Positions 26,944-41,120 of a stretch of DNA of 47,807 nucleotides are shown piece after piece; the first letter of the stretch is position 1, and each line of letters opens with the position of its first letter. The stretch spans positions 1-47,807 of the forward strand of contig JBGPFD010000001.1 of NCBI GenBank assembly GCA_041483175.1, in the 5' to 3' direction. Below the pieces are notes generated by a model. That model was not told the origin of the DNA, did no database searches, and worked only from the letters and a program-made list of their open reading frames with translations. The translations under genes were made by a program, and so were the position numbers. This DNA comes from Thermoanaerobaculia bacterium. GTDB lineage: Bacteria; Acidobacteriota; Thermoanaerobaculia; Gp7-AA8.

Positions 26944-29091
26944 TCACTTTCCGAAGATTTTCTTCAACTTTCCCCAGGCCCCTTCGACGCTCTGCCGTTC
27001 GCGATCAACCTCGTCCGCCCAGCGGCGGAACTGGTCGTAGGTGATCGCCGGCGGTTCGTCGAAATGTTCCTTGTCGAGAAAAACACGGCGAAGGATGGCG
27101 CCGAGCAGCCCGCGCGGGCACGCGTGCGTGGGGGCCGTTCCCTCGAGAAAGACCTCGTGCCACGGTCCGGGACAGCCGTCGCGCCAGAGCATGCCGCTAT
27201 CGGGATCGATGTCGCGGAAGGTGACGCCGGGTGGCGGTTTCGGCTCCGCGTGCTGGTGCGGAATGGCGCTCATGTACGACGCCCAGATCGGAATCGCCGC
27301 CTCGGCGGATGACAGCCGCAGCGGCGCGCCGTGATCGAATCCGACCCACACTGTGGTCACCATGTCGGGCGTATACCCGACGAACCACGCGTCGCGGTAG
27401 TCATTCGTCGTTCCGGTTTTTCCGGCGACGTAGCCGAGCCCCCAGCGCCCGAGGCGCGAAGCCGTTCCGCGCTGCACCACGCCACGCAGGAGCGTGTGCA
27501 TGACGTAAGCGGCATCGGCATTCACGACCTTCTTCGTTTCCGGCTGGTGGCTGAAGAGCGCCTTCCCCGCGTGATTGCGAACGGCGGTGAGCAGAAACGG
27601 CTCGGCACGCGTGCCGAGGTTCGGGAAGGGCGTGTAGGCGGCGGTCAACTCACGGATCGTAACTTCGATGACCCCGAGCGGAAGCGCGGGAATGGGGGCG
27701 AGCTTCTCGTCGAAGCCGAACTCCGCTGCCGTGCGCACCACACTCTTCACTCCGATCTGCTGCGTGAGACGGACGGTCGGCACGTTGAGCGATTTTTCGA
27801 ACGCTTCGCGGAGCGAGACGCGGCCGCGATAGCGCTCGTCGTAGTTGTGCGGCTCCCACGGCTCCTCACCGCGGACCTCGATGGTGACCGGCGAGTCGAG
27901 CAGGAGCGTCGCGGGCGTGGCGCGCTTCGAGGCGATCGCCGCCAGATAGGCGAAGGTCTTGAACGCCGATCCCGGCTGGCGGCGCATGGCGGATGTGCGA
28001 TCGAATGGTGAGACGTTGTAATCGGTGCCGCCGACGAGCGCCCGGATGCCGCCGCTGCGCGGATCGACGGAGAAGATGGCCACTTCCAGCGGCTCGTTGC
28101 GCGCCGCGGCGCGAATCCACGAGTGCCCCGCCTCGAGCTGACTCGGCGCGCGGCGCGCCACACGTTCCGCCGCGTGCTGCGCGTCGGGATCGATCTGGCA
28201 ATCGATTGTCAGCCCGCCTTCGATGACCGGCCGTATGCCGATCTGTTTCACCAGCTCGCCGCGAAGCGCGCGGAGATAAAAAGGAAACGGCGGCTGCGGA
28301 ATCGATCCTTCGACGAAGCGGACGTCGTGCGCGACGGCCTGGCGAAACTGGTCGTCGCTGATCCAGCCGCGCTTCTGCATCACCGCCAGGACGGCATCGC
28401 GGCGCGCGCGGACGACGTCGGGACGGCGCCACGGATTGTCGCGGTTCGGCGCGCGAATGATGCTGGCGAGCATGGCCGCTTCGTCGAGTCGCAGCTCACC
28501 CGGCAGCTTGTCGAGATAGAGCCGCGAGGCTTCATCGATTCCCAGGACCGGCTTTCCGGCTTTGTGCCCGAGGTAGACGTCGTTCAGATAGATCTCCAGG
28601 ATCTCGTCCTTCGACATGCGCGCATCGAGCAGCAGGGCGAGCGCGATCTCCACGAACTTCCGCCGCCAGGTTCGTTCCTGAGAGAGAAAACGCGCCTTGA
28701 TGATCTGCTGATCGATCGTGCTGCCGCCCTGCGTGATGCCGCCGGCGCGCACGTCCGCCAGCAGCGCGCGGGCCATTCCGACCGGGTCGATCCCGATGTG
28801 ATGCCGGAATCGGACATCCTCGGCGGCCTGGAAGGCCTTCGGGACGTAGTCGGGAAGTGTCCTCAGCGCCGCCGGCGGAGTGACGCGCCAGTCGACGCCG
28901 TAAAGCGTTGTCACCACTGCACGTGTGCTCGATCGGAGGACGGTCGGCTCGCGCCAGGTGTGATGAACCAGCTCGTTGGTCAGGCGGCGGTTCATCACGA
29001 AGAGGTAGACGGCGACCGTCTCCATTCCGACAAAGACGGCGAGAGCCAGGGCGATGGGCCACCACATCAGCGAGCGTGACAATCGCACCAT
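26944..29091 (-). CDS. Class A penicillin-binding protein (PBP1A family; glycosyltransferase GT51 plus transpeptidase).
   Basis: The GT51 motifs are EDVRFRHHIGIDP, GGSTIDQQIIK and RKFVEIALAL. The transpeptidase motifs are SAFK, SLN and KTGTT. Confidence 0.9.
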   Translation of the reverse strand: MVRLSRSLMWWPIALALAVFVGMETVAVYLFVMNRRLTNELVHHTWREPTVLRSSTRAVVTTLYGVDWRVTPPAALRTLPDYVPKAFQAAEDVRFRHHIGIDPVGMARALLADVRAGGITQGGSTIDQQIIKARFLSQERTWRRKFVEIALALLLDARMSKDEILEIYLNDVYLGHKAGKPVLGIDEASRLYLDKLPGELRLDEAAMLASIIRAPNRDNPWRRPDVVRARRDAVLAVMQKRGWISDDQFRQAVAHDVRFVEGSIPQPPFPFYLRALRGELVKQIGIRPVIEGGLTIDCQIDPDAQHAAERVARRAPSQLEAGHSWIRAAARNEPLEVAIFSVDPRSGGIRALVGGTDYNVSPFDRTSAMRRQPGSAFKTFAYLAAIASKRATPATLLLDSPVTIEVRGEEPWEPHNYDERYRGRVSLREAFEKSLNVPTVRLTQQIGVKSVVRTAAEFGFDEKLAPIPALPLGVIEVTIRELTAAYTPFPNLGTRAEPFLLTAVRNHAGKALFSHQPETKKVVNADAAYVMHTLLRGVVQRGTASRLGRWGLGYVAGKTGTTNDYRDAWFVGYTPDMVTTVWVGFDHGAPLRLSSAEAAIPIWASYMSAIPHQHAEPKPPPGVTFRDIDPDSGMLWRDGCPGPWHEVFLEGTAPTHACPRGLLGAILRRVFLDKEHFDEPPAITYDQFRRWADEVDRERQSVEGAWGKLKKIFGK

Positions 29092-29172
29092 GTTCGTCTA
29101 AATTACACCGCTACCAAGCAACCAAATTGCCACCGCGGTCGATCTCTGAAGTCTTCACAAAGGAGAAAACGC

Positions 29173-29577
29173 ATGGCCACCAGGAAACGGTCGAAGAAGT
29201 CCTCTTCCAAGCGCTCGAAATCGTCGGCGAAGAAGAAATCCGCCAGCCATTCGCGCAAGGGCAAAGGCGCAAAGAAGAGCGTCGCGAAAAAGAGACCGGT
29301 AAAGAAAGCCGCCGCGAAAAAGAAACCGGTAAAGAAAGCCGCCGCGAAAAAGAGCGCAGCCCCCAAGCCGGCGCCCAGCCGCAGCGCGCCGAAGCCCGCC
29401 GCCCCGGCACCGCGCCCGAGCAAGAGCGTGATCAGCCGCGTGGTCGAGCAGGTACGCGACACCGCCAGACCGTTCGGCTCGTCGATCGGAAGCACGATGC
29501 CTGGCCGCCGCGAAGAAGAGCCGTATGGCGGCGGCGGCGGGGAAGACCCGGAAGGCGGCTCCTCGGAAGAGTTCTGA
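29173..29577 (+). CDS. Lysine/alanine-rich histone H1-like nucleoid protein with an acidic Gly-rich tail.
   Basis: An aaggag RBS precedes ATG 29173. The protein begins MATRKRSKKSSSKRSKSSAKKKSASHSRKGKGAKKSVAKKRPVKKAAAKKKPVKKAAAKK. A 30-bp unit is tandemly repeated about 2.4 times at 29284..29355. Confidence 0.7.
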   Translation: MATRKRSKKSSSKRSKSSAKKKSASHSRKGKGAKKSVAKKRPVKKAAAKKKPVKKAAAKKSAAPKPAPSRSAPKPAAPAPRPSKSVISRVVEQVRDTARPFGSSIGSTMPGRREEEPYGGGGGEDPEGGSSEEF

Positions 29578-29585
29578 GGGTCTAT

Positions 29586-29643
29586 GCGACGTAGCGCCGG
29601 CTCTCAGCCGGCGCACGCCGCCTGGAGAGGCGGCGCTTCGTTG
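29586..29643. repeat. REP-like double-hairpin element (family copy 2), between convergent gene ends.
   Basis: It shares acgtagcgccggctctcagccggc and cgccgcctggagaggcggcg with copy 1, in the same orientation. Confidence 0.8.
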
Positions 29644-29650
29644 TTCGCCT

Positions 29651-30676
29651 TCAGCTCGCGTTCTCGAACACCTTCCGAATACGCTTCGAGAAGTACTTCT
29701 TCGGAAGGCCGTCTTTCCACGCCCGGAGTTGTTTCGCTTTCCGGAACGACTTCATCGCCGCGTTCCTGTACGTGGCATCGGCCTCGAACGCGTACTGTGA
29801 GTACTGCGACGCGCCGAGAAACGCCCATATCCAGCCATTTCTCGGCATCTCCTCCGACAGCTTGCCGAACTGCATCGCGGCGTCATCGAACTCACCGTTG
29901 AAATAGCTTTCCAGTGCCTGGCGGACGCGTTTCGTCGTATCGGCGATGACCACCTGCGTGGCGGTGCCCGGTCGCGTGACCGGCGGCGACGGCAGGCCGG
30001 GGGCCGTCGCCGCGTCGGCAAAAGTGGCGGCATTCTCGGCGAGCGCAATCACGGCGTTGAGATCGTCGTTCGACCGCGCCATGACGTTGCGCGTGTTCGC
30101 ATCGGCGACGGCCTGCAACGCCTGAACGTACTGCGGCGACTGGGTCGCTTTGCGCTGCTGCGCGGCAGCGAGATGCTGTTTCGCTTCGTTGATCGCCGCC
30201 TGAGCGCGCTGTTTGAGCGCCGCATCGATCGCCGGAACGGCCGGCTGCTGCGGCACAGGAACGGGTCGAACCGGCTGCGGTTGTGGCGCGACCGGCTGCG
30301 GCTCCGGCGTCGTGGCCGACGCAAGCTTCGTCTTGGCGCGCTCCATCAGCGTCTCGATCGGACCCTGATCGACCTCTCCCGGTCCGCTGGTCTTCTCGAA
30401 ATCCGCAATGGCCTGCTCGTATTTGCCGAGATTGAGAGAGGCCACGCCGCGGTAGTAGTAGGGGTGGTAATTGATGAAGATCGCGCCGTAGGTGCGGGCG
30501 TGATTGTCTTCCTTCGCATTTCCCTTGATCGCCGCTGTCATCTTCTGGACAACGACCTGCCATTGCCCCTTCCGCGCGGCGTCGAGTCCTGCATCGTAAT
30601 CGTCGTACCACGAGGCGAGCGCGATTCCCGCGGCCAGTTGCACAGCGAATGCGGCGACGATCACCTTCCGCATCAT
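29651..30676 (-). CDS. Secreted TPR-like protein with a Pro/Gln-rich linker; last gene of the kinase operon.
   Basis: Signal peptide MMRKVIVAAFAVQLAAGIALA. A TPR-like segment YYYRGVASLNLGKYEQAIADFEK. The ATGATG start overlaps the upstream TGA. Confidence 0.6.
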   Translation of the reverse strand: MMRKVIVAAFAVQLAAGIALASWYDDYDAGLDAARKGQWQVVVQKMTAAIKGNAKEDNHARTYGAIFINYHPYYYRGVASLNLGKYEQAIADFEKTSGPGEVDQGPIETLMERAKTKLASATTPEPQPVAPQPQPVRPVPVPQQPAVPAIDAALKQRAQAAINEAKQHLAAAQQRKATQSPQYVQALQAVADANTRNVMARSNDDLNAVIALAENAATFADAATAPGLPSPPVTRPGTATQVVIADTTKRVRQALESYFNGEFDDAAMQFGKLSEEMPRNGWIWAFLGASQYSQYAFEADATYRNAAMKSFRKAKQLRAWKDGLPKKYFSKRIRKVFENAS

Positions 30677-32406
30677 TGTTTTGTAACTTCCTTTTGCAGC
30701 TCGTCGAAGTTCACGCCGCCGAAATCGACCATCTTTGGCACGCGCTGTCCGGCGTCGATCTGCACGGCGAACGTTTTGGTCTCATTCGGTCCGCTCATGG
30801 TGACTAGATACTTTCCGGGCGCCAGCTCGATCCGTGTCGGCGTCGAGCGCGACTCATCATTCAGATTCACCGGCGCGTTATCCTTTTCGTTGATGATTTT
30901 GTCGACATCGCCCCACGGTGAGGCGGAGAGCAGCAGGACTCCCTGCCCGGCCGGAATGGCCGCCGTCGACGACGGAGCCGTCGCGGTGACGGTGGTCCCG
31001 CTGGCGACGCCCGTGCCTGTCACGCCCGGTTTCGTCCCGTGAGACGGCAACACGAACACGCCGATCCCGATGGCCAGAACGATAGCCGCGGCGATTGCCG
31101 AAAGGATCACCGTGTTCCTCTTTTTTGCCGCCGGCTGCATCTGCCGCTCGAGCACCGTCGGCGCGGCCTGCGACGTCCGTTCGAGCACGGTCGGCTCGTT
31201 GCTACCGGTGGCGACGCGTTCGATGAGCGTCGGCTGCTGCGAGGCCGTCACCGGAGCGAAGCCGCGTTCCACCACCGTGGCCTGATCGGCCTGTGTCCGC
31301 GCCGTGCCGGCGGTGGTCATTGCCGTCGGTGCGCTTCCGGTGGTGGGAACCTGTCCGGTGCGCACGCGCGGCACGTCGGTGACGGTGCGCTGCGCGGAAA
31401 GCGTGACCATCCGCTCGCCGAGGCCGTACTTCTCATCGGGGGCGATGGCGCTGCGGATCGCTTCGAGGCCCTCGGCAAATTCAGCGGCCGAAGCGAAGCG
31501 CTGATCGCGGCCCTTCTCCAGCGATTTCATGACCATCGCCTCGAGCTGCGGCGGGACGCTCACCTCGGGACTGAGCTGCGCGATCGGCAACGGCTTCTCG
31601 GTCACGTGCTTGAGGATGTAGCCGTGAGGATTGGTCGCCTGGAACGGCGCGCGGCCGGCGAGCATCTCGTACATCACGATGCCGAACGAATAGAGATCGC
31701 TGCGCGGATCGAGATGTTCGCCTTCTTTCAGAAAGCCCGCCTGCTCGGGCGAAGCGTATTTCAGCTTGCCCAGGAACATGCCCGTCTGCGTGAGGCCGTG
31801 ACCGGACTCCCCTTCGGCCAGCGATTTGGCGATGCCGAAGTCGATCACTTTCACCAGCAGCTTCCCGTGGTGATCCTGCGACAGCATGATGTTTTCGGGA
31901 GAGATGTCGCGATGGATCAGGCCCATGGAGTGCAGGTGCTCGAGTCCGTTGAGCGCCTGAATGGCCACTTCAATCGTCAACCGCGCCGGCATCGGCCCGT
32001 TCTGGAACGTCCACTTCTGAATGTTGATGCCGTCGATGAACTCCCACACCATGTAGTAGGAGCCGTCTTCGAGCTGCGCGAAGTCGTACAGCATCGCCAG
32101 GTTCTTGTGTTTGATCATCGTGGACGTGCGCGCCTCCTGGAGGAAGCGCTGCATGCCCTGATCGTCCGCGGCGACGTTCGGCCGCATGATCTTGATGACC
32201 CGCAGCTCGTTGAGATGGATGTGGCGCACCTTGAAGATCTCTCCCATCCCGCCGACGCCGAGGCGGTCGAGGATCTGGTACTTGCCGTCGATCAACCGGG
32301 CCGAATACGTGCGCTGAAAATTCGTCACCCGCTCGGCGCAGTGCGGGCACTGGTCGAGCTGGCTGTCGATCGGTTGCTTGCATCGCAGACAATTAATCTC
32401 TGGCAT
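30673..32406 (-). CDS. Ser/Thr protein kinase with an N-terminal zinc ribbon, one TM helix and an extracytoplasmic PEGA-like domain.
   Basis: CLRCKQPIDSQLDQCPHC is the zinc ribbon. Kinase motifs are GVGGMGEIFKV, VIKIM, HRDISPEN, DFG and SPEQ. The TM helix is VILSAIAAAIVLAIGIGVFVL. The C-terminal segment is LLLSASPWGDV...LAPGKYLVTM. ATG 32406. Confidence 0.85.
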   Translation of the reverse strand: MPEINCLRCKQPIDSQLDQCPHCAERVTNFQRTYSARLIDGKYQILDRLGVGGMGEIFKVRHIHLNELRVIKIMRPNVAADDQGMQRFLQEARTSTMIKHKNLAMLYDFAQLEDGSYYMVWEFIDGINIQKWTFQNGPMPARLTIEVAIQALNGLEHLHSMGLIHRDISPENIMLSQDHHGKLLVKVIDFGIAKSLAEGESGHGLTQTGMFLGKLKYASPEQAGFLKEGEHLDPRSDLYSFGIVMYEMLAGRAPFQATNPHGYILKHVTEKPLPIAQLSPEVSVPPQLEAMVMKSLEKGRDQRFASAAEFAEGLEAIRSAIAPDEKYGLGERMVTLSAQRTVTDVPRVRTGQVPTTGSAPTAMTTAGTARTQADQATVVERGFAPVTASQQPTLIERVATGSNEPTVLERTSQAAPTVLERQMQPAAKKRNTVILSAIAAAIVLAIGIGVFVLPSHGTKPGVTGTGVASGTTVTATAPSSTAAIPAGQGVLLLSASPWGDVDKIINEKDNAPVNLNDESRSTPTRIELAPGKYLVTMSGPNETKTFAVQIDAGQRVPKMVDFGGVNFDELQKEVTKQ

Positions 32407-32422
32407 CGTGGCTCCTGTGACA

Positions 32423-32480
32423 TTGCCGGTTACCTGTTTCCGGAGAGTTCCGGCAACTGGCAACCGGGAACCGGCAACTT
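32423..32480. repeat. Inverted heptamer arrays filling the spacer between the two kinase genes.
   Basis: ttgccgg ttacctg tttccgg at 32423..32443. ccggcaa ctggcaa ccgggaa ccggcaa at 32450..32477. The outer units are perfectly complementary. The array ends 16 nt from ATG 32406. Confidence 0.75.
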
Positions 32481-33695: not shown

Positions 33696-34336
33696 TTCAA
33701 AGCGCCCTCGTCATCCCAGTAGAAGCTTTCGTTGCACAGCGGCGTGAACAGGAAGCGATGCGAGCCAATGCGCACGATGTCGTTGGCGACGAGATCGCGC
33801 CGCGGCTCGATCTCCTGTTCGTTGACGTACGTGCCATTCGTGGAGTTGTGATCCATCAGGATGAAGCGCCGCTCTTCCGGGCGGAAGACGAGATCAGCGT
33901 GATGCGTGGAGGCCTGATCGTCGTTGATTGCAACATCCGACCGGTGGTCGCGTCCGAGAGTGTTCCTGCCGATGCGCACCGGGAATGATTCGCCGCGCGC
34001 GGTTCCATTGAGCCCCACCAGCCAGCCGACGACATAGCGCTTCGGTTGTGCCTCGGGCGGCCCGATCTTCTGCGCCGCGACCGTGCGCTCCATCGGCGGC
34101 GGCTGCACCGGCGCCGTTTCACGCCGCGGCGGCGCGGCGGGCGGGGGAACCGGGGTGGGGCGGCGCGGCTCGGGCGGGGTCGTGGGAGGGCTCGCGTCCT
34201 GTGAGCCGAAACGGCTCGGGCGAACCACCGGAATGTCCGACTCTTTCTCTACCGCCGGACAGTACGGACAGAGGTCCCACGACTCGTCGATGAAGTGTCC
34301 GTTTTCGCAGCGTTTATCAGCCACTGCCAGCCTCAC
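33692..34336 (-). CDS. FHA domain protein with an N-terminal zinc ribbon and a Pro-rich linker.
   Basis: CENGHFIDESWDLCPYC is the zinc ribbon. The FHA part is FPVRIGRNTLGRD...ASTHHADLVF...DHNSTNGTYVNE. GTG 34336 overlaps the upstream TGA (GTGA), and its own stop overlaps the next ATG (ATGA). Confidence 0.85.
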   Translation of the reverse strand: MRLAVADKRCENGHFIDESWDLCPYCPAVEKESDIPVVRPSRFGSQDASPPTTPPEPRRPTPVPPPAAPPRRETAPVQPPPMERTVAAQKIGPPEAQPKRYVVGWLVGLNGTARGESFPVRIGRNTLGRDHRSDVAINDDQASTHHADLVFRPEERRFILMDHNSTNGTYVNEQEIEPRRDLVANDIVRIGSHRFLFTPLCNESFYWDDEGALK

Positions 34337-35967
34337 GCGTGATAGGCGACCGCAATTGCGTTGCGACCCCCAAAATAAATGATGTCGCCGTCTTTGAGAT
34401 ACCGTTTGTCGATCTTCTGATCGTTGACGTACGTTCCATTGGACGAATTCCGATCGATCAGCAATACCTTGCCATCGATCGACACGACCTCGGCGTGGAG
34501 GCGCGAGACCTTCGGGTTTTCCAATACGATCTCACAAATCGACGATTCCCGCCCGATCCGGATTCCCGAACCGCCGAGCCCGAGGCGCTCCCCCGCCCGG
34601 TCGCCGTTCAGAATTGTGAAACGCCCCAGAAGCAACGGGACCTGGCTCGCCGTGGTGTCGCTTCCCTGCCGTCCCACCGGAGCCACGACCGTTTCCACCG
34701 TCTTCGCGGTCAGCAGATCTTTCGGGATGCGGTGGCGCCGCGAGGTCAGCGCGATGATCACCGTCACCAGCACCACCAGCGCGCCAACCCCGATGGCGCC
34801 GGTAATCAGAGGATGCAGCCGCCACATCGGCATCGACTGCAGCCCACGGTCAACATCGCGGCGGAAGCGGACCAGGTCGGGAGAGCTGGGAAAGAGGGCG
34901 CTCGACAGCGTCAGCTCTTCTTTCGCCACGGTCCATTTGCCGTCGACGGCAGCCTGCAGCGCCTTCCGCCAATGCCGGTTGAACTCTCCGCCGATGTTGA
35001 ACGCCAGGTGCGCCGCGCTCAGGAAATCCTTGGCCACGTTGATCGGGACGAGAAACTTGATCTGCTCCGCATCGCTTCGCCCCCAGGTGGAGATGCCGAC
35101 GACCTCACCATCGCGATTGACCGCCGGCCCGCCCGAGTTTCCGCGATAAATGCCGACGTTCGATTGGAACACCGGCGCGTTGTTGATGTCGCGTTTGATG
35201 GCGGTGATGGTGCCGTTGGCCAGCGTCGCTTCGAGATCGCTTTCGCGCGACAGCCAGCCGCCGATGATGTCGTCGGTACTGCTGGCCACGGCGGGATAGC
35301 CAATGGACCACACCGAATCGCCGACGCGAACGGCGTCGGAATCGCCGAGCTGCAGCGCCGGCAGGTCCTTTCGCCCGGCGACGCGCAGCAGCGCGAGATC
35401 GGCCCCGCGCTCGTTCAATGCGGGCGAGTAGCGCTCGACGCGGAACGGCAGCTTCTCGCCATTCGAGAGTTCGACCTCGTTGACGATGACGACGTGATCG
35501 AGCCGCCCCTTCGCGGCAAGCGCGAGCTCATGCCGCTCCAGCGCGTCGCCGCGATAGAGCCGCCGAAGCTCGTCGACCGGAAAATGCTTCAGCAGCGCGG
35601 AGATCGCTCCGTTCCGCAGCAGCTCCTTCTCCAGCGCGGCGTTGTCGCGTGTCTGCGCGATAACGTGCCCGCTGGTGAGAATCCAGCCGTCTGGATTGAT
35701 GATGAATCCGCTCCCTGACCCACCCGCCCCGGTCTCCACGGTGCTTTCCACCGTACCGTCACGCCAGGTCAGGCCGACTTCATGCGCGATGTCATCGAGC
35801 GCCTTCGCCGGATAATGAAACTGCGCCGTGGCGTAGGCGTTGATGCGCACCACCGCGGGCTTGACCGCGTATGCCATCTTCTGCACGTCGTCGAGACGCG
35901 ACACGTCGCGGCGGCAGGCAACAGCCACCAGCAACAGAAGGAGGAGGCGTCGGGAACCGGGAGACAT
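34333..35967 (-). CDS. Trypsin-like (S1/Trypsin_2) serine protease, one TM helix, then a C-terminal FHA domain.
   Basis: N-terminal signal/anchor LLLLLLVAVAC. Triad contexts are LTSGHV, DLALLRV and GNSGGPAV. The TM helix is LITGAIGVGALVVLVTVIIAL. The FHA part is IRIGRESSICEIVLENPKVSRLHAEVV...DRNSSNGTYVND. Confidence 0.85.
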   Translation of the reverse strand: MSPGSRRLLLLLLVAVACRRDVSRLDDVQKMAYAVKPAVVRINAYATAQFHYPAKALDDIAHEVGLTWRDGTVESTVETGAGGSGSGFIINPDGWILTSGHVIAQTRDNAALEKELLRNGAISALLKHFPVDELRRLYRGDALERHELALAAKGRLDHVVIVNEVELSNGEKLPFRVERYSPALNERGADLALLRVAGRKDLPALQLGDSDAVRVGDSVWSIGYPAVASSTDDIIGGWLSRESDLEATLANGTITAIKRDINNAPVFQSNVGIYRGNSGGPAVNRDGEVVGISTWGRSDAEQIKFLVPINVAKDFLSAAHLAFNIGGEFNRHWRKALQAAVDGKWTVAKEELTLSSALFPSSPDLVRFRRDVDRGLQSMPMWRLHPLITGAIGVGALVVLVTVIIALTSRRHRIPKDLLTAKTVETVVAPVGRQGSDTTASQVPLLLGRFTILNGDRAGERLGLGGSGIRIGRESSICEIVLENPKVSRLHAEVVSIDGKVLLIDRNSSNGTYVNDQKIDKRYLKDGDIIYFGGRNAIAVAYHA

Positions 35968-35979
35968 GGCAGCGGTGGT

Positions 35980-36876
35980 TTATCGTGAAGAACGCGGAGC
36001 AGAGGTGGTCATTCCCGTACCGGGGCGATCCTTCACTGTATCTTCAAAGGGAGCGTGGTCGTCGCGCGTCTCGTCGCCGGGCTGACCGGCGCGAACGACC
36101 CTGGCCACGATCACCGTCACGTTGTCGGGAGCGCCGCGCTCCAGCGCCAGGCGCACGAATTCGTCCGCGGCCGCCTGCTGCGGAAGCTTGCCAATCTTCC
36201 GGATCTCGTCTTCCTTGACCATGCCGTGCAGCCCGTCGCTGCACAGGATGAAGACATCGTTCTCGCGGACGTCGAGCGGCCCGCGGACGTCAATCTCCAC
36301 TTGTTCGCCAACCCCGATCGAGCGCTGCAGGACGTTCCGGCGCGGATGGTTTTCCGCCTCCTGCGACGTCAGCAGTCCCTCCCGCACCATCGTCGCTACC
36401 AGTGAGTGGTCCTCAGTCAGTTGTTTGATGGCATCGCCGCGGATGCCGTAGATGCGCGAGTCGCCGACGTGGGCGAACCACGCCTGCGATCCGCGGATGA
36501 CCAGCGCCGACGTCGTGGTGCCCATGCCGCGCAGATCGGCATTCGACTGTGCCTCGGAAAATACGCGCGCGTTCGCGCTGGCGAGGGCGTCGCGAAGCGA
36601 GGCCGCGACGTCTGCCGTCTCGCTGCCGAGGTATTGCGCCTTCACCGTTTCGCCTGCCAGGCGGGAGGCGGTCGCACCGCCCCGGTGGCCACCCATCCCG
36701 TCGGCCACGATCAGCAGCCGCCCGCCGGGATGACTGGCCGCCTCTTCGCGCGGCGTGGTGTACGTTCCGAAGTCCTGGTTTTCCGCGCGCACCCGCCCCA
36801 CGTCAGTCTTCAAGACTGCCTGCACGATGAGGCGATCAGTGGAGGTCACAGGTGCTGGCGCAGGTTGTTCGGTCAT
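35980..36876 (-). CDS. PP2C-family Ser/Thr phosphatase (Stp/PstP-like); first gene of the operon.
   Basis: DVGRVRAENQDF, IVADGMGGHRGG, HVGDSRIY, LCSDGL and DNVTVIV. Confidence 0.9.
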   Translation of the reverse strand: MTEQPAPAPVTSTDRLIVQAVLKTDVGRVRAENQDFGTYTTPREEAASHPGGRLLIVADGMGGHRGGATASRLAGETVKAQYLGSETADVAASLRDALASANARVFSEAQSNADLRGMGTTTSALVIRGSQAWFAHVGDSRIYGIRGDAIKQLTEDHSLVATMVREGLLTSQEAENHPRRNVLQRSIGVGEQVEIDVRGPLDVRENDVFILCSDGLHGMVKEDEIRKIGKLPQQAAADEFVRLALERGAPDNVTVIVARVVRAGQPGDETRDDHAPFEDTVKDRPGTGMTTSAPRSSR

Positions 36877-37001: not shown

Positions 37002-38423
37002 ATGCACGGCAGAGCGCGCCGGCGGCTCGGTGGGTGGATGTTACTGCTCGTCGCGGTGCTCGCCGTACGCGCCGCCGCGCAACAGCCAGCCGAAGCCGCC
37101 GCGCTCCAACAGGCCCAGAAGCTCGCCTGGAGCCGGCATTTCGCCGAAGCCGAACGGATCTATCGCCACTTGCTGCGGCAGTCGCCGAACTCGCGTGACG
37201 TGCGGGTCGGGCTCGCACGCGTTCTTCTGTGGGAAGGACGTTACCGCGAGGCGCGCACGATGTTTCTGCAGCTCGTGGCGCGGCATCCATCGGATGTCGA
37301 CGCCGCGGAGGGAGCGGCGACCGCTGCGTACTGGCAGGGCGACTTCCGCACCGCCGCGCGCGAATTCCGCGCCCTCGCCGCTGCCCACCCGGAACGGACG
37401 TCGGCGGTCAAGAGCCTGCACGACATCCTGCTCGCCACGCGTGGCAGCGAGCGCGTATTGCTTGACGCCACGAACGACAATCAGCCATACCGCCTGTGGC
37501 GTTCGGAGGCGGTTGCCTCCGTCTTTTCCGACCCGCTGACGCGATGGGATGTGACGGCGGGCGTCTGGCGCGCTGACAACCCAAGGCTCTCCGTGGTCCG
37601 CAGCGGCCCGTATGTAGTCGTCAGCAACGAAGTGGGGCTGCCTTGGCAGCGATTGACGATTACGACGAGCGCCGGCGTCCTCCGCTGGCCTGACGGGACG
37701 ACCCGACCGATCGGCGGAGTCGCGGCGCGACTGCGCACGTCGGCCACTTCGTCGATCGAAGCGGCCATCGACCACCGCGAACTGCTGCGCACCTCCACCG
37801 CAATCGGCGGTCGTCCCGCCGTCACGCGGATGCTCCTCAGCTGGAGCCGCTACGCCGAAAAAGAGTGGCTCGCCGGCTTCGAGTCAGGACGCCTGCAATA
37901 CTTCGATCGAAACCGCGGCTGGTACGTTCAAGGCTACGGCTTGTGGCCGGTAATGGGGCGCGGGCCGCTCACCGTCTTTGCCGGTGCTTCCGCCGCGCTG
38001 CGCGATACGCGCGACAGCAGGTTCTACATCGAAGCGATCGCGTCGGAGCGGTCGGGCTCGGAATTTCTCTACGCCTATCGCGGCGCGTACACGCCGTACT
38101 GGACGCCGCAACACCTGCAGGAAACGCGCGCGATCGTCACCGCGTCGGAGGCGGTCGCGCGAAACGCCACCATCAAAATCCAGGCAGAGGCCGGCGTTGC
38201 CCGTGACCGCGCGCAATCTTTCGGACCGTCGGAAGGACCCTCACCTCTCCCGTCGACGATCTTCGTCTTCGACTTTCAAAGGACATTCCACCCGACGCGA
38301 TTTTCCATCGGCGCATCGCTGGCGCTTTCTCCGGTCTACGCGCTGGAGCTGAGCGCAGAGCGAAACACGACCGTCTTCTACCGTGCGAAGGAGTTCCGTG
38401 CGACCGTGGTCCGACATCGCTGA
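37002..38423 (+). CDS. TPR-repeat protein with a putative C-terminal outer-membrane beta-barrel (PgaA/NfrA/YaiO-like exopolysaccharide porin candidate).
   Basis: aggag RBS and a signal peptide. There are three TPR-like repeats (AEAERIYRHLLRQSPNSRDVRVGLARVLLWEGRYREARTMF...). These are followed by about 300 aa of alternating beta-strand-like pattern. The barrel assignment is inferred from pattern and context, not from a motif. Confidence 0.5.
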   Translation: MHGRARRRLGGWMLLLVAVLAVRAAAQQPAEAAALQQAQKLAWSRHFAEAERIYRHLLRQSPNSRDVRVGLARVLLWEGRYREARTMFLQLVARHPSDVDAAEGAATAAYWQGDFRTAAREFRALAAAHPERTSAVKSLHDILLATRGSERVLLDATNDNQPYRLWRSEAVASVFSDPLTRWDVTAGVWRADNPRLSVVRSGPYVVVSNEVGLPWQRLTITTSAGVLRWPDGTTRPIGGVAARLRTSATSSIEAAIDHRELLRTSTAIGGRPAVTRMLLSWSRYAEKEWLAGFESGRLQYFDRNRGWYVQGYGLWPVMGRGPLTVFAGASAALRDTRDSRFYIEAIASERSGSEFLYAYRGAYTPYWTPQHLQETRAIVTASEAVARNATIKIQAEAGVARDRAQSFGPSEGPSPLPSTIFVFDFQRTFHPTRFSIGASLALSPVYALELSAERNTTVFYRAKEFRATVVRHR

Positions 38424-38424
38424 A

Positions 38425-39954
38425 ATGTTCCGCCATCGTCGGGCGGCGCCCGTGCGCTTGTGGGAGCGCGCGCTGCTGGGCGTTCTGCTCTTTCTGGGAT
38501 TGTGGAGCGTGATCTATTTCGGCTTCTGGTGGTTCCAGCTCGATCACGTGAATGAGCCGCTGCTGTTCGTGCTCCTGTCGCTTGCCACGTGGTACGGCGT
38601 TTTTCGGATGATGGTCGGCTGGTACAACGCCTTTCACATCGAGCAACCCGACCCGCTGCCGCCACCGGACGGCCTCTCCGTGGCCATCTTCACGACCTCG
38701 TCACCGGGCGAGCCGTACGAAATGTTCGTTCGCACTCTTGCCGCGGCGCGCGAGGTGCGTTACCCGCACACGACCTACCTGCTCGACGACACGCGCGATC
38801 CGCGATTCGCCCGACTGGCGGCCGAGATGGGAGCGGTGCATCTCGAGCTGATCGGAATCCCGGGCGCCAAGGCGGGAAAGATCAACGCGGCGCTGGAGCG
38901 AACCACCGAGGAGTTCATTCTGGTTCTCGACCCGGACCACATCCCGTTTCCGGAGTTTCTCGACCGCGTCCTCGGCTATTTCCACGACGAGCAGGTGGGC
39001 TTCGTTCAGGTCGCGCAGGCCTATCACAATGCCGGCGAGTCGTTCGTGGCGCGCGCGGCGGCGGAGCAGACCTTTTCCTTTTACGGCCCGATCATGCAGG
39101 GGATGCACGGAACGGGAACGGCGGTGGCCATCGGCGCAAACTGCACGTTCCGCCGCAGCGCGCTGCAGTCGATCGGCGGCCATGGGATCGGGCTGGCGGA
39201 AGATCTGGTCACCTCGATCCGCCTGCACGCCCGCGGGTGGAAATCGGTCTATGTGCCGGAGATCGTCTCGCGCGGGCTGGTGCCGTCGGACCTCGATTCC
39301 TTCCTCAAGCAACAGCTCAAGTGGTCGCGCGGCGTCCATGACGTCCTATTTCGCGAGTATCCTCGAGCATTCCGCCGGCTGACGGCCCACCAGAAAATTT
39401 CCTACTTCATGATCGGCAGCTACTACATCGTCGGCCTCACCTCGTTCATCTACATCACCATTCCGCTCGTCTATCTCTGGACCGGCCATCAACCGGCTGC
39501 CTTTCTTCTTTCCGAGTATGTCCAGCACGCGCTGCCGGTGGGACTTCTGGGCGTGGTGATCTACCGCTTCGTCCAGCGATGGCTTTGCGATCCGCTCCGC
39601 GAACGCGGCAGCCACTGGCGGGGTACGCTGATGAAGCTCGGCACCTGGAACGTCTACCTCAAAGGACTGGTTCTGGCGCTCCTCGGAGTCGCCGTTCCGT
39701 ACATTCCGACGGCGAAGGAACGAAAGCGCGGCCGTTTTTGGAAGCTCGCACGCGTGCCGATGGTCACCATCGCGTTGTCGCTGACCACGCTGGTCTGGAC
39801 CGCGTTCCGGCAGTTGTTCGTGCTGCCGGAATCGGAGGTGCGGATCACGACGGAAGTGACATTCGGCATGGTGGCGTTCACCATCATGAATACTGTATTG
39901 ATGAGCGGCAGGATTTACGCTGCCTGGCAGGATCGCGAGCGAGTCGAAGAATGA
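38425..39954 (+). CDS. Processive GT2 glycosyltransferase, cellulose-synthase-like, without a PilZ domain.
   Basis: Two N-terminal TM helices. Catalytic motifs are LLDDTRD, VLDPDH, GLAEDL (TED-like) and QQLKWSRG (QxxRW-like, with K in place of R). Multiple C-terminal TM helices. ATG 38425 lies 1 nt after the upstream stop. Confidence 0.85.
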   Translation: MFRHRRAAPVRLWERALLGVLLFLGLWSVIYFGFWWFQLDHVNEPLLFVLLSLATWYGVFRMMVGWYNAFHIEQPDPLPPPDGLSVAIFTTSSPGEPYEMFVRTLAAAREVRYPHTTYLLDDTRDPRFARLAAEMGAVHLELIGIPGAKAGKINAALERTTEEFILVLDPDHIPFPEFLDRVLGYFHDEQVGFVQVAQAYHNAGESFVARAAAEQTFSFYGPIMQGMHGTGTAVAIGANCTFRRSALQSIGGHGIGLAEDLVTSIRLHARGWKSVYVPEIVSRGLVPSDLDSFLKQQLKWSRGVHDVLFREYPRAFRRLTAHQKISYFMIGSYYIVGLTSFIYITIPLVYLWTGHQPAAFLLSEYVQHALPVGLLGVVIYRFVQRWLCDPLRERGSHWRGTLMKLGTWNVYLKGLVLALLGVAVPYIPTAKERKRGRFWKLARVPMVTIALSLTTLVWTAFRQLFVLPESEVRITTEVTFGMVAFTIMNTVLMSGRIYAAWQDRERVEE

Positions 39955-41120
39955 AAGCGAGAAAGCGCTACCAGATTGCGTTTTTCGCGCTCGGCTGGCT
40001 GATCGCCATCGGCCTGCTGTTCCAGTTCGGGCTGGGCGCCGGATTTCAGGCTGTCTACGATGAAATCGGCGACCGCGTGCGGCACATCGCGCAGCGGTTC
40101 TCCGACACCGAAGGCGACGTGGTCACCAGCGTCCGCCGCACTTCGCGCAGCGACTACCTCGCACCGCTGCGGCCGACGCTCTCCTCCGTAGCTGCGCTGC
40201 GGAATCCTTCGTTGATGCTATTTGGAGTCTACGACGGCGGCTTTCCCAACACCTTCGCTGGATTGGAAAAGTTCGAATCGGAAGTCAATTACAAGTTCCC
40301 GATCATTTCCTTTTATGTCGCCTGGGGCGACAAGCCCGCCGAGCAGTTCCCGACGCGCATGGTGGAGACGATCAACCGCATGGGATCGGTGCCGCTGATC
40401 ACCTGGGAACCGTGGGTCGTCGACTTCGATGAGCGAATCCGCAGCAATCTTCCGCGCGCGGCGGAACGCGAGTACGCCTGTCTGGCGGCGATCGCCCGCG
40501 GCGAGTACGACTTCTACATCGTGACCTGGGCGAAGGCGGCAGCGGCGTACCACAAGCCGATGTTTCTCCGCTTTGCGCACGAGATGAACGATCCGTATCG
40601 CTATCCGTGGGGCCCGCAGAACGGCAATCGTCCGGAGGACTTCATCGCCGCCTGGAAACACGTGCATCTGATTTTTCAGAAGATGGGAGCGGACAACGTG
40701 TTGTGGGTCTGGTCACCGCACATCTCCATGTCCTGGTTCGAGTACTACTACCCCGGGCCGGAGTTCGTCGATTGGATCGGCATCGGTGTCCTCAACTACG
40801 GCAACGTCGCCTCGTGGTCGCGCTGGTGGAGCTTTCATCAGATCCTGGAGAAGTCGTATCCGTCGCTGCTGAAGCTGAACGAGCCGATCATGATTTGCGA
40901 GTTCGGCACGCTGACCAAAGGTGGCAACGCGTACGAGTGGTACCGCCAGGCGTTCTACCACATCGATCACACCTATCACCGCGGTGTGCGGGCGATCGTG
41001 CTGTTCAACCAGGAGAACGACAACACCATGACCTCGCTGGCGCTCGACTGGAGCGTCAATCAGGATCCGAGCGCGCGCGCCCTCGTCGCCCAGCAGCTCG
41101 CGCAACACTCCGCGCTCTAG
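39951..41120 (+). CDS. Membrane-anchored glycoside hydrolase, GH26-like (beta-mannanase/beta-glucanase clan GH-A).
   Basis: ATG 39951 overlaps the synthase TGA (ATGA). The N-terminal anchor is IAFFALGWLIAIGLLF. FLRFAHEMN and PIMICEFG contain the two catalytic Glu contexts typical of GH26. Confidence 0.75.
   Translation: MKARKRYQIAFFALGWLIAIGLLFQFGLGAGFQAVYDEIGDRVRHIAQRFSDTEGDVVTSVRRTSRSDYLAPLRPTLSSVAALRNPSLMLFGVYDGGFPNTFAGLEKFESEVNYKFPIISFYVAWGDKPAEQFPTRMVETINRMGSVPLITWEPWVVDFDERIRSNLPRAAEREYACLAAIARGEYDFYIVTWAKAAAAYHKPMFLRFAHEMNDPYRYPWGPQNGNRPEDFIAAWKHVHLIFQKMGADNVLWVWSPHISMSWFEYYYPGPEFVDWIGIGVLNYGNVASWSRWWSFHQILEKSYPSLLKLNEPIMICEFGTLTKGGNAYEWYRQAFYHIDHTYHRGVRAIVLFNQENDNTMTSLALDWSVNQDPSARALVAQQLAQHSAL

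Follow-up and report, generated by a model that had tools for sequence, protein, structure and literature searches.

HtrA-type serine protease domains are extracytoplasmic enzymes, and one member of the family, DegS, is membrane-tethered and allosterically regulated. Forkhead-associated (FHA) domains need phosphothreonine (pThr) made by kinases. Hanks-type kinases are abundant in soil phyla, and few of their outputs are known. Here we describe a protein family that joins the two kinds of domain, starting from a gene on a 47,807-nucleotide (nt) stretch of a Thermoanaerobaculia bacterium genome (GenBank assembly GCA_041483175.1, contig JBGPFD010000001.1, positions 1 to 47,807), called the window below. 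The gene encodes an S1 protease domain followed by a single transmembrane (TM) helix and, at the C-terminus, an FHA domain, and it lies in an operon with two Hanks-type kinases and a PP2C phosphatase. The product is neither a canonical HtrA protease nor a FhaB equivalog; it is an uncharacterised, widespread variant joining an HtrA-like protease and a FhaB-like FHA region. We consider it somewhat probable that it is a bitopic inner-membrane serine protease whose FHA domain reads pThr written by kinases of the operon, such that the cytoplasmic phospho-state directs periplasmic proteolysis from the inside out. Computation, and computation only, has established how the domains are arranged, that the residues for catalysis and pThr binding are intact, which topology is predicted, and that linkage to genes for kinases, PP2C and FHA proteins is conserved.

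With the HtrA family (MEROPS S1C: DegP, DegQ, DegS, HtrA1, AlgW, MucD) the protein shares the protease fold, the His-Asp-Ser triad and the extracytoplasmic site. It is not a canonical member because it has no PDZ domain (no Pfam match at E ≤ 0.01 anywhere in the 544-residue protein), having helices at residues 328-378 instead, and the family model TIGR02037 gives 99.9 bits against a cut-off of 416.2. It differs further in a 4-helix insert within the protease domain, in a C-terminal TM helix combined with a predicted N-terminal lipid anchor, and in the FHA domain across the membrane. MarP (Rv3671c) is likewise a PDZ-less S1 protease, held on the outside of the cytoplasmic membrane, and its model NF033740 matches weakly (37.9 bits, cut-off 250); in MarP the multi-TM anchor is N-terminal, and the protein is not known to have a cytoplasmic reader domain. 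LapG, a periplasmic protease with a comparable regulatory logic, is not an S1 protease. In the LapD-LapG system of Pseudomonas fluorescens a cytoplasmic reader controls periplasmic proteolysis inside-out (PMC3032545, PMC3032553). There, however, receptor and protease are separate proteins and the signal is cyclic di-GMP (c-di-GMP), leaving shared logic and no homology, although rhodanese+PilZ variants of the present family suggest a c-di-GMP-read version of it. Rv1747 of Mycobacterium tuberculosis resembles our protein in having an outward activity that is raised by a co-encoded Hanks kinase, PknF, by way of its own FHA domains and linker pThr (PMC3138270, PMC8339232), but its output is transport, its FHA domains are N-terminal and paired, and it has no periplasmic enzyme domain. 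Full-text searches aimed at the protease-TM-FHA architecture found no study, and the only mention of FHA with trypsin found was a reversed FHA-FHA-Tryp singleton from Bacteroides thetaiotaomicron in a 2008 survey (NP_811686.1; PMC2605481), also uncharacterised, which unites FHA and S1 protease in one polypeptide, FHA-FHA-(TM)-trypsin, with the FHA domains N-terminal. The other half of our protein recalls FhaB/FipA (Rv0019c), encoded in the cluster fhaA-fhaB-pstP-rodA-pbpA-pknA-pknB, where a TM helix, linker and C-terminal FHA domain are again found together with a PP2C, two Hanks kinases and a second FHA protein; a penicillin-binding protein (PBP) gene is also nearby in the close clade of our family. 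FhaB differs in having no extracytoplasmic domain, and phylum and gene order are different. The FhaB/FipA equivalog model NF049868 reaches 48.2 bits, below its cut-off of 125, and matches residues 394-521 only. We have not used the FipA/FtsZ mechanism as a model, the main FipA paper (PMC2797604) having been retracted.

The source genome (3.37 Mb in 309 contigs, 94.8% completeness) carries one copy of the gene (Table 1). Pfam places Trypsin_2 at residues 85-292 (E 1.7e-27), with Trypsin at 161-315, and FHA at 469-533 (E 3.4e-19; 69.5 bits, cut-off 20.7). An AlphaFold2 (AF2) model from 62 homologues, with a mean predicted local distance difference test (pLDDT) score of 87.7 and a predicted TM-score (pTM) of 0.69, arranges the chain as a signal helix (3-17), a double beta-barrel (39-318), helices (328-378), the TM helix (386-409), disorder (410-445) and an FHA beta-sandwich (446-543). 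Foldseek matches in the PDB were HtrA-family protease domains only (HtrA1, DegQ, MucD, DegP, AlgW and DegS-deltaPDZ; E about 1e-14, target-normalised TM-scores 0.76-0.83), and in a PDB sequence search the motifs SGHV (His101), GADLAL (Asp190) and GNSGGP (Ser278) lined up with their catalytic counterparts in HtrA1, Thermotoga HtrA and MucD (E about 1e-14). The 4-helix insert that follows the catalytic His is a gap in the pairwise alignment with HtrA1, yet it is found throughout the family alignment. Between protease domain and membrane lies a 3-helix bundle with a P..PD motif, of which P360, P363 and D364 are near-invariant in the family. The N-terminus fits a lipoprotein signal peptide, with lipidation predicted from the pattern: the lipobox reads VAVA|C18, of 120 homologues (64-99% identity) 118 keep the Cys and the other two are N-terminally truncated, and the residue at -1 is A, G or S in close homologues, while distant relatives mostly have type-I-like cleavable signal peptides ending in A-x-A-like sites.

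The catalytic and binding residues are strongly conserved. All 120 close homologues have His101, Asp190, Ser278, Arg473, Ser488, His491 and Asn510, and 119 of them have Thr512, so that the pThr pocket (Arg473, Ser488, His491, Asn510, Thr512) follows the G-R, S-x-x-H and N-G-T pattern. The FHA domain is the best-conserved region, with a column identity of 0.94-0.99 against 0.5-0.9 elsewhere. Across the family, 259 of 262 full-length members have an intact triad, S488, H491 and N510 are present in all 262 and R473 in 256. The three exceptions (P0122, P0125, P0131; 46-50% identical) have changed His to Pro with Asp to Glu, Ser to Ala, and both His and Asp to Arg; they keep the FHA pocket and are likely pseudoproteases. 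The first-pass annotation of this gene had proposed the domain order and an intact His/Asp/Ser context, and both stand, the former upheld by the open reading frame (ORF), Pfam, hydropathy and the AF2 model. It had also proposed a helical region of about 80 residues, which is indeed helical in the model but nearer 50-70 residues long, and an N-terminal signal or anchor, which can now be refined to the lipoprotein signal peptide described above.

Topology was judged by heuristics applied family-wide, to 255 proteins in which a GxxGGP motif is followed by a SxxHA motif. A hydrophobic segment of TM strength lies between the two motifs in 254 of these, its flanks hold on average 2.5 lysine plus arginine residues before it and 4.2 after (higher after in 215, equal in 32, lower in 7), and signal-peptide-like N-termini occur in 229 of 254 relatives. 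In the window protein residues 387-407 are the sole strong hydrophobic segment besides a short N-terminal hydrophobic run, with two lysine or arginine residues in the 15 positions on the N-side and five in the 15 on the C-side. ATP-dependent phosphorylation, which FHA binding requires, does not occur in the periplasm. Given the signal peptides, the charge bias about the TM helix, the extracytoplasmic habit of HtrA domains and the need of FHA domains for pThr, a periplasmic protease with a cytoplasmic FHA domain (N-out/C-in) is the only reasonable prediction, and it is the one that the first-pass annotation had made. That both domains lie on the same side, or that the hydrophobic segment does not span the membrane, strikes us as extremely improbable: the evidence for N-out/C-in is of a heuristic kind, but the hydropathy peak of 2.71 over 19 residues with a TM segment at the matching place in nearly every relative, the signal-like N-termini, the retained lipobox Cys and the charge bias all speak against such a misprediction, as does the lack of ATP-dependent phosphorylation in the periplasm.

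A functional tie between the protease-FHA protein and the adjacent kinases and phosphatase is well supported by gene neighbourhoods. Relatives were found on 493 stretches in a scan of species-representative genomes (tblastn E ≤ 1e-3), and the best 80 of these, 71 FHA-bearing and 9 FHA-less, were searched for neighbours within 5 kb using small hidden Markov models built in this analysis. A kinase was found at 57 of the 71 FHA-bearing loci, a PP2C at 43 and a second FHA gene at 51; where at least 4 kb of flank was available on each side (n = 44) the counts were 38, 32 and 34. With 29 kinase genes in the 3.37 Mb of the source genome, adjacency by chance would be about 5-10%. Genes for a small FHA protein, a PP2C and a kinase adjoin each of four distant members (26-33% identity), in varying order. 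At least four arrangements recur: protease-kinase-x-FHA-PP2C in Geobacter, Thermodesulfobacteriota and Hydrogenobacter, protease-FHA-PP2C-kinase in Terriglobia and Bryobacterales, protease-FHA-kinase in other Acidobacteriota, and kinase-PP2C-FHA-protease in Gemmatimonadales. Such shuffling of gene order across phyla argues for selection on co-location despite the kinship of the genomes.

A natural control is provided by relatives that keep the ectodomain and TM helix and carry a rhodanese or rhodanese+PilZ region on the cytoplasmic side (P0364, P0367, P0390; L072, L078, L106, L109, L112), most of them from Methylomirabilota/NC10. Within 5 kb of the FHA-less loci of the genome scan neither a kinase (0/9) nor a PP2C (0/9) was found. 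In a maximum-likelihood tree of the ectodomains, rooted on three HtrA-like paralogues from the window's genome, the family separates from those paralogues with support of 100/100, and the rhodanese group forms one clade (100/100) that falls within the Geobacter-type FHA members (97/95). It follows that the cytoplasmic reader was exchanged a single time, and that the kinase neighbourhood disappeared together with the FHA domain. This clade may represent a c-di-GMP- or sulfur-linked version of the protease-FHA device. FHA and PilZ domains are both readers of cytoplasmic signals, and the replacement of one such reader by another is our main argument for favouring inside-out over outside-in signalling. 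The first-pass annotation had likewise suggested inside-out control by the adjacent kinases and phosphatase; the tie to these genes is borne out by neighbourhoods that are conserved across phyla and lost with the FHA domain, and the direction that we infer is the better supported of the two.

Signalling from the outside in, in which the ectodomain acts on unfolded proteins or peptides of the envelope, by binding or cleavage, and the resulting change of conformation or oligomeric state crosses the TM helix, letting the FHA domain capture or release a phosphorylated kinase or PP2C and so tune Ser/Thr signalling, would make the protein a DegS-like sensor with a phospho-relay output. We regard this as unlikely, though it has several points in its favour. 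HtrA proteases of the DegS type are known to sense stress, the ectodomain persists in three relatives despite a broken triad, the 4-helix insert and juxtamembrane bundle could bind ligands, and the membrane kinase of the operon has only a small ectodomain (about 125 residues, no Pfam match), for which the protease could offer a sensing surface. FHA and PilZ domains, however, are readers without known enzymatic output, and a reader-for-reader swap fits a cytoplasmic input better; the triad is retained in all but those three members, and a single TM helix followed by a disordered linker of about 40 residues would be a poor conduit for a conformational signal.

Control of periplasmic proteolysis from the cytoplasm might work as follows. 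Export by the lipoprotein signal peptide would place the HtrA-fold S1 domain and helical bundle in the periplasm, leaving linker and FHA domain in the cytoplasm, where the latter would bind pThr made by the Hanks kinases of the operon and removed by the PP2C. The likeliest docking sites would be the T-φ-φ-E-R repeats of the membrane kinase, Thr423/Thr426 of the protease's own linker, or both. Docking would recruit or cluster the protease beside the kinase complex, and the cytoplasmic phospho-state would thus set where and when the periplasmic protease acts. We infer FHA-pThr docking at these named sites, how it affects protease activity, which way the signal travels and what is cleaved; candidate substrates are the small ectodomain of the membrane kinase, the exported TPR-like protein and the PBP.

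The T-φ-φ-E-R repeats are newly noted here as candidate FHA docking sites and are a feature of the close clade alone. Four of them lie in the juxtamembrane linker of the membrane kinase, which joins the kinase domain to the TM helix (TVVER, TLIER, TVLER, TVLER; residues 396-440, window positions 31144-31278). Seven orthologues have three to five T-φ-φ-E repeats as counted by eye in the printed linkers (e.g., DEATVMER, APTVLER), or one to four per orthologue under a stricter five-residue pattern, with a chance expectation of 0.0015 per 100 residues. In all eight membrane-kinase orthologues examined the HRDxKxxN catalytic loop is replaced by HRDISPEN (Lys to Ser), and the protein may be a scaffold or an atypical kinase. 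Since the soluble kinase-FHA protein has HRDIKPAN in its place, it is plausible that the soluble kinase phosphorylates a scaffold-like membrane kinase, which the operon's three FHA domains would then read. The second candidate phospho-acceptor is the Thr423/Thr426 motif in the protease linker, RRxR-φ-PKDLL-x-A-x-T423-V-E425-T426-x-V-x-P430, in which T423 is conserved in 91%, E425 in 89%, T426 in 75% and P430 in 97% of the 120 homologues. There are precedents for pThr in a disordered linker beside an FHA domain, namely Rv1747/PknF (PMC3138270, PMC8339232) and EsrG1 (bioRxiv 10.64898/2026.09.08.750141).

Several points weigh against control of the protease from the cytoplasm as set out here. FHA domains prefer a hydrophobic residue or Asp at pT+3, and neither motif has one there. 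Both candidate sites, T-φ-φ-E-R repeats and Thr423 motif alike, occur in the close clade alone and are missing from the distant loci, and they therefore cannot provide a general mechanism; the repeats were rejected as a general docking code, being absent from the kinases of the distant loci. No kinase lies within 5 kb at 14 of the 71 FHA-bearing loci, at least six of which (Holophagaceae, Blastocatellia, Pyrinomonadaceae) have at least 4 kb of flank on both sides, so that linkage is frequent and not obligatory, and the neighbourhood counts were drawn from related, non-independent genomes. The three broken-triad relatives, with an ectodomain kept in the face of lost catalytic residues, suit a sensor or scaffold role. 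Lastly, the predicted topology draws on heuristics and domain biology, and the whole family is known from computation alone.

It should also be considered that the protease could be a constitutive housekeeping enzyme of envelope quality control or cell-wall processing, which the FHA domain merely tethers to a kinase or divisome-like complex in the manner of FhaB, with phosphorylation setting assembly and not proteolysis. The TM-linker-FHA region does resemble FhaB/FipA (the NF049868 match covers model positions 10-139), the operon parallels the actinobacterial fhaA-fhaB-pstP-...-pknA-pknB cluster, and the close clade has a class A PBP gene in synteny (loci L001, L003, L020-L023). We nevertheless think this quite unlikely. 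PBP linkage is a feature of the close clade that is absent from the distant loci, and the FhaB score is far under its cut-off. The idea also overlaps with recruitment by phospho-dependent docking, from which it differs only in whether protease activity changes.

The family is large. A HMMER scan of 1.84 billion cluster representatives returned 147 proteins at E ≤ 1e-30, about 100 of which (50%-identity clusters) are full-length with signal peptide, TM helix and FHA domain, and the best 120 matches of a word-indexed search all carry both Pfam domains (Trypsin_2 and FHA). A search from a 31%-identical member reached Geobacteraceae, Deltaproteobacteria, bacterium HR13, Candidatus Eisenbacteria and Acidobacteria, while the best 80 of the 493 stretches came from Geobacter/Thermodesulfobacteriota, Hydrogenobacter and Thermocrinis, many Acidobacteriota families, Gemmatimonadales and Methylomirabilota. 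The family thus spans at least five phyla: Acidobacteriota, Thermodesulfobacteriota (Geobacter), Aquificota, Gemmatimonadota and Eisenbacteria. In its own phylum the gene was found in 27 of 301 sampled genomes, patchily overall and consistently inside families (5/5, 3/3 and 8/8 in three of them). The first-pass annotation had called an FHA regulator across the membrane unusual. This holds only among the HtrA proteases that have been studied, since in public genomes the architecture is common and multi-phylum. Functional annotation has not followed: the database names of the 120 matches are generic ('S1-C subfamily serine protease', 'trypsin-like peptidase domain-containing protein [Thermoanaerobaculia bacterium]'), and no NCBIfam model reaches its own cut-off on the protein.

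A conflict or defence module, acting against phage or another threat with the protease as effector, is a further idea that we find very improbable. PADLOC gave matches to PD-T4-6 and mad6 (the kinases) and to RT-Protease and LmuA (the protease domain), and a threat pathway with kinase, phosphatase and FHA output has been described in Actinobacteria (bioRxiv 10.64898/2026.09.08.750141). The PADLOC matches, however, are generic and at domain level, no system-specific model being matched, and on this ground the defence reading was set aside. The gene is moreover single-copy and stably syntenic within the three families just mentioned, the close-clade locus adjoins core genes (PBP1A and a MetH-like gene), and vWA/MoxR, toxin and mobile-element genes were not found in the gene lists of the loci read.

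If the cytoplasmic phospho-state does direct the protease, there would be a direct post-translational route from kinases, 29 of them in this 3.4-Mb genome, to the remodelling of the envelope (cell wall, adhesins, sensors) without transcription. A broader proposal, which we offer tentatively and would not call probable, is that Hanks signalling has a dedicated and widespread envelope output: a kinase would mark either repeated Thr residues of a membrane (pseudo)kinase scaffold or the protease linker, FHA binding would assemble and activate the HtrA-like protease in the periplasm, and the device would be the pThr counterpart of LapD-LapG in at least five phyla, with a sister clade rewired to rhodanese/PilZ. 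A large conserved family with intact catalytic and binding residues and a control clade in which the reader was swapped makes this a well-defined, testable system.

Table 1. Features of the protease-FHA gene and its operon in the window (aa, amino acids; numbering of residues as in the protein)
Feature	Coordinates	Strand	Evidence or remark
Protease-TM-FHA gene	34333..35967	minus	ATG start, 544 aa ORF; Pfam Trypsin_2 + FHA; AF2 model
Lipoprotein signal peptide (predicted), aa 1-18 (MSPGSRR-LLLLLLVAVA-C18)	35914..35967	minus	lipobox-like context
HtrA-fold S1 protease domain, aa 39-318	35014..35853	minus	Pfam, PDB sequence search, Foldseek
Catalytic His101	35665-35667	minus	
Catalytic Asp190	35398-35400	minus	
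Catalytic Ser278	35134-35136	minus	
Family-specific 4-helix insert straight after catalytic His, aa 100-153	35509..35670	minus	AF2 helices 100-107, 109-128, 131-139, 142-153
Periplasmic (predicted) juxtamembrane 3-helix bundle, aa 328-378	34834..34986	minus	AF2 helices 328-341, 345-358, 363-378
Single TM helix, aa 387-407 (LITGAIGVGALVVLVTVIIAL)	34747..34809	minus	Kyte-Doolittle peak 2.71 over 19 residues; helix 386-409 in model
Cytoplasmic (predicted) disordered linker, aa 408-445	34633..34746	minus	pLDDT <50 at 410-423 and 433-441
FHA domain, aa 446-543	34339..34632	minus	Pfam; beta-sandwich in model, pLDDT about 90-97
PP2C phosphatase (Stp1/IreP family)	35980..36876	minus	NCBIfam NF033484 244.5 bits, cut-off 230; upstream of protease gene by 12 nt
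Zinc-ribbon / Pro-rich / FHA protein, 214 aa	33692..34336	minus	Pfam FHA; GTGA, 4 nt shared by its start and the protease stop
Soluble Hanks kinase with C-terminal FHA, 404 aa	32481..33695	minus	Pfam Pkinase + FHA; canonical HRDIKPAN
Membrane Hanks-type kinase, TM aa 452-470, ~125-aa periplasmic domain	30673..32463	minus	Pfam; HRDISPEN loop
Exported TPR-like protein, 341 aa	29651..30676	minus	signal peptide; overlaps kinase gene by 4 nt; syntenic in close relatives
Class A PBP (transglycosylase + transpeptidase)	26944..29091	minus	Pfam; syntenic in close clade only

On the minus strand the operon reads PP2C, protease-FHA, zinc-ribbon/FHA protein, soluble kinase-FHA, membrane kinase and exported TPR-like protein, with intergenic gaps of 12, -4, -4, 17 and -4 nt and the PBP gene after it, and relatives at 62-79% identity keep the same gene set and order. 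The TTG start of the membrane kinase at 32463 is probably wrong, an ATG being available at 32406, and the N-terminus of this protein is a zinc ribbon. A minus-strand ORF at 29155-29616 (153 codons) was considered and is probably not a gene, having no Pfam match and an odd Arg/Gly/Phe-rich translation. Each inspected locus has a small exported protein in or beside the module (L012 11230-11778, L013 12009-12809, L014 8702-9529, and 29651-30676 in the window). These may be lineage-specific substrates or partners; a shared fifth component was rejected, as the exported proteins of the distant loci have no BLAST similarity to one another.

Some minor observations on the family may be of use. Variants exist with two FHA domains, or with FHA followed by a multi-TM DUF4328, after the TM helix (P0167, 752 residues; P0244, 777 residues). 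A bacterial-type protease-FHA and kinase pair, 45% identical to the Geobacter-type query, is found on a 5.6-kb contig binned as Candidatus Heimdallarchaeota (L044) and probably reflects contamination of the bin, not an archaeal carrier of the family. Hydrogenobacter sp. RSW1, among the carriers, may be a cultured isolate. In close relatives (L001 5315-6979; L003 4674-6326) an FHA-GAF-guanylate-cyclase gene stands divergently upstream of the PP2C, and the corresponding position in the window is taken by an operon of TPR/porin, GT2 synthase and GH26 genes (37002-41120).

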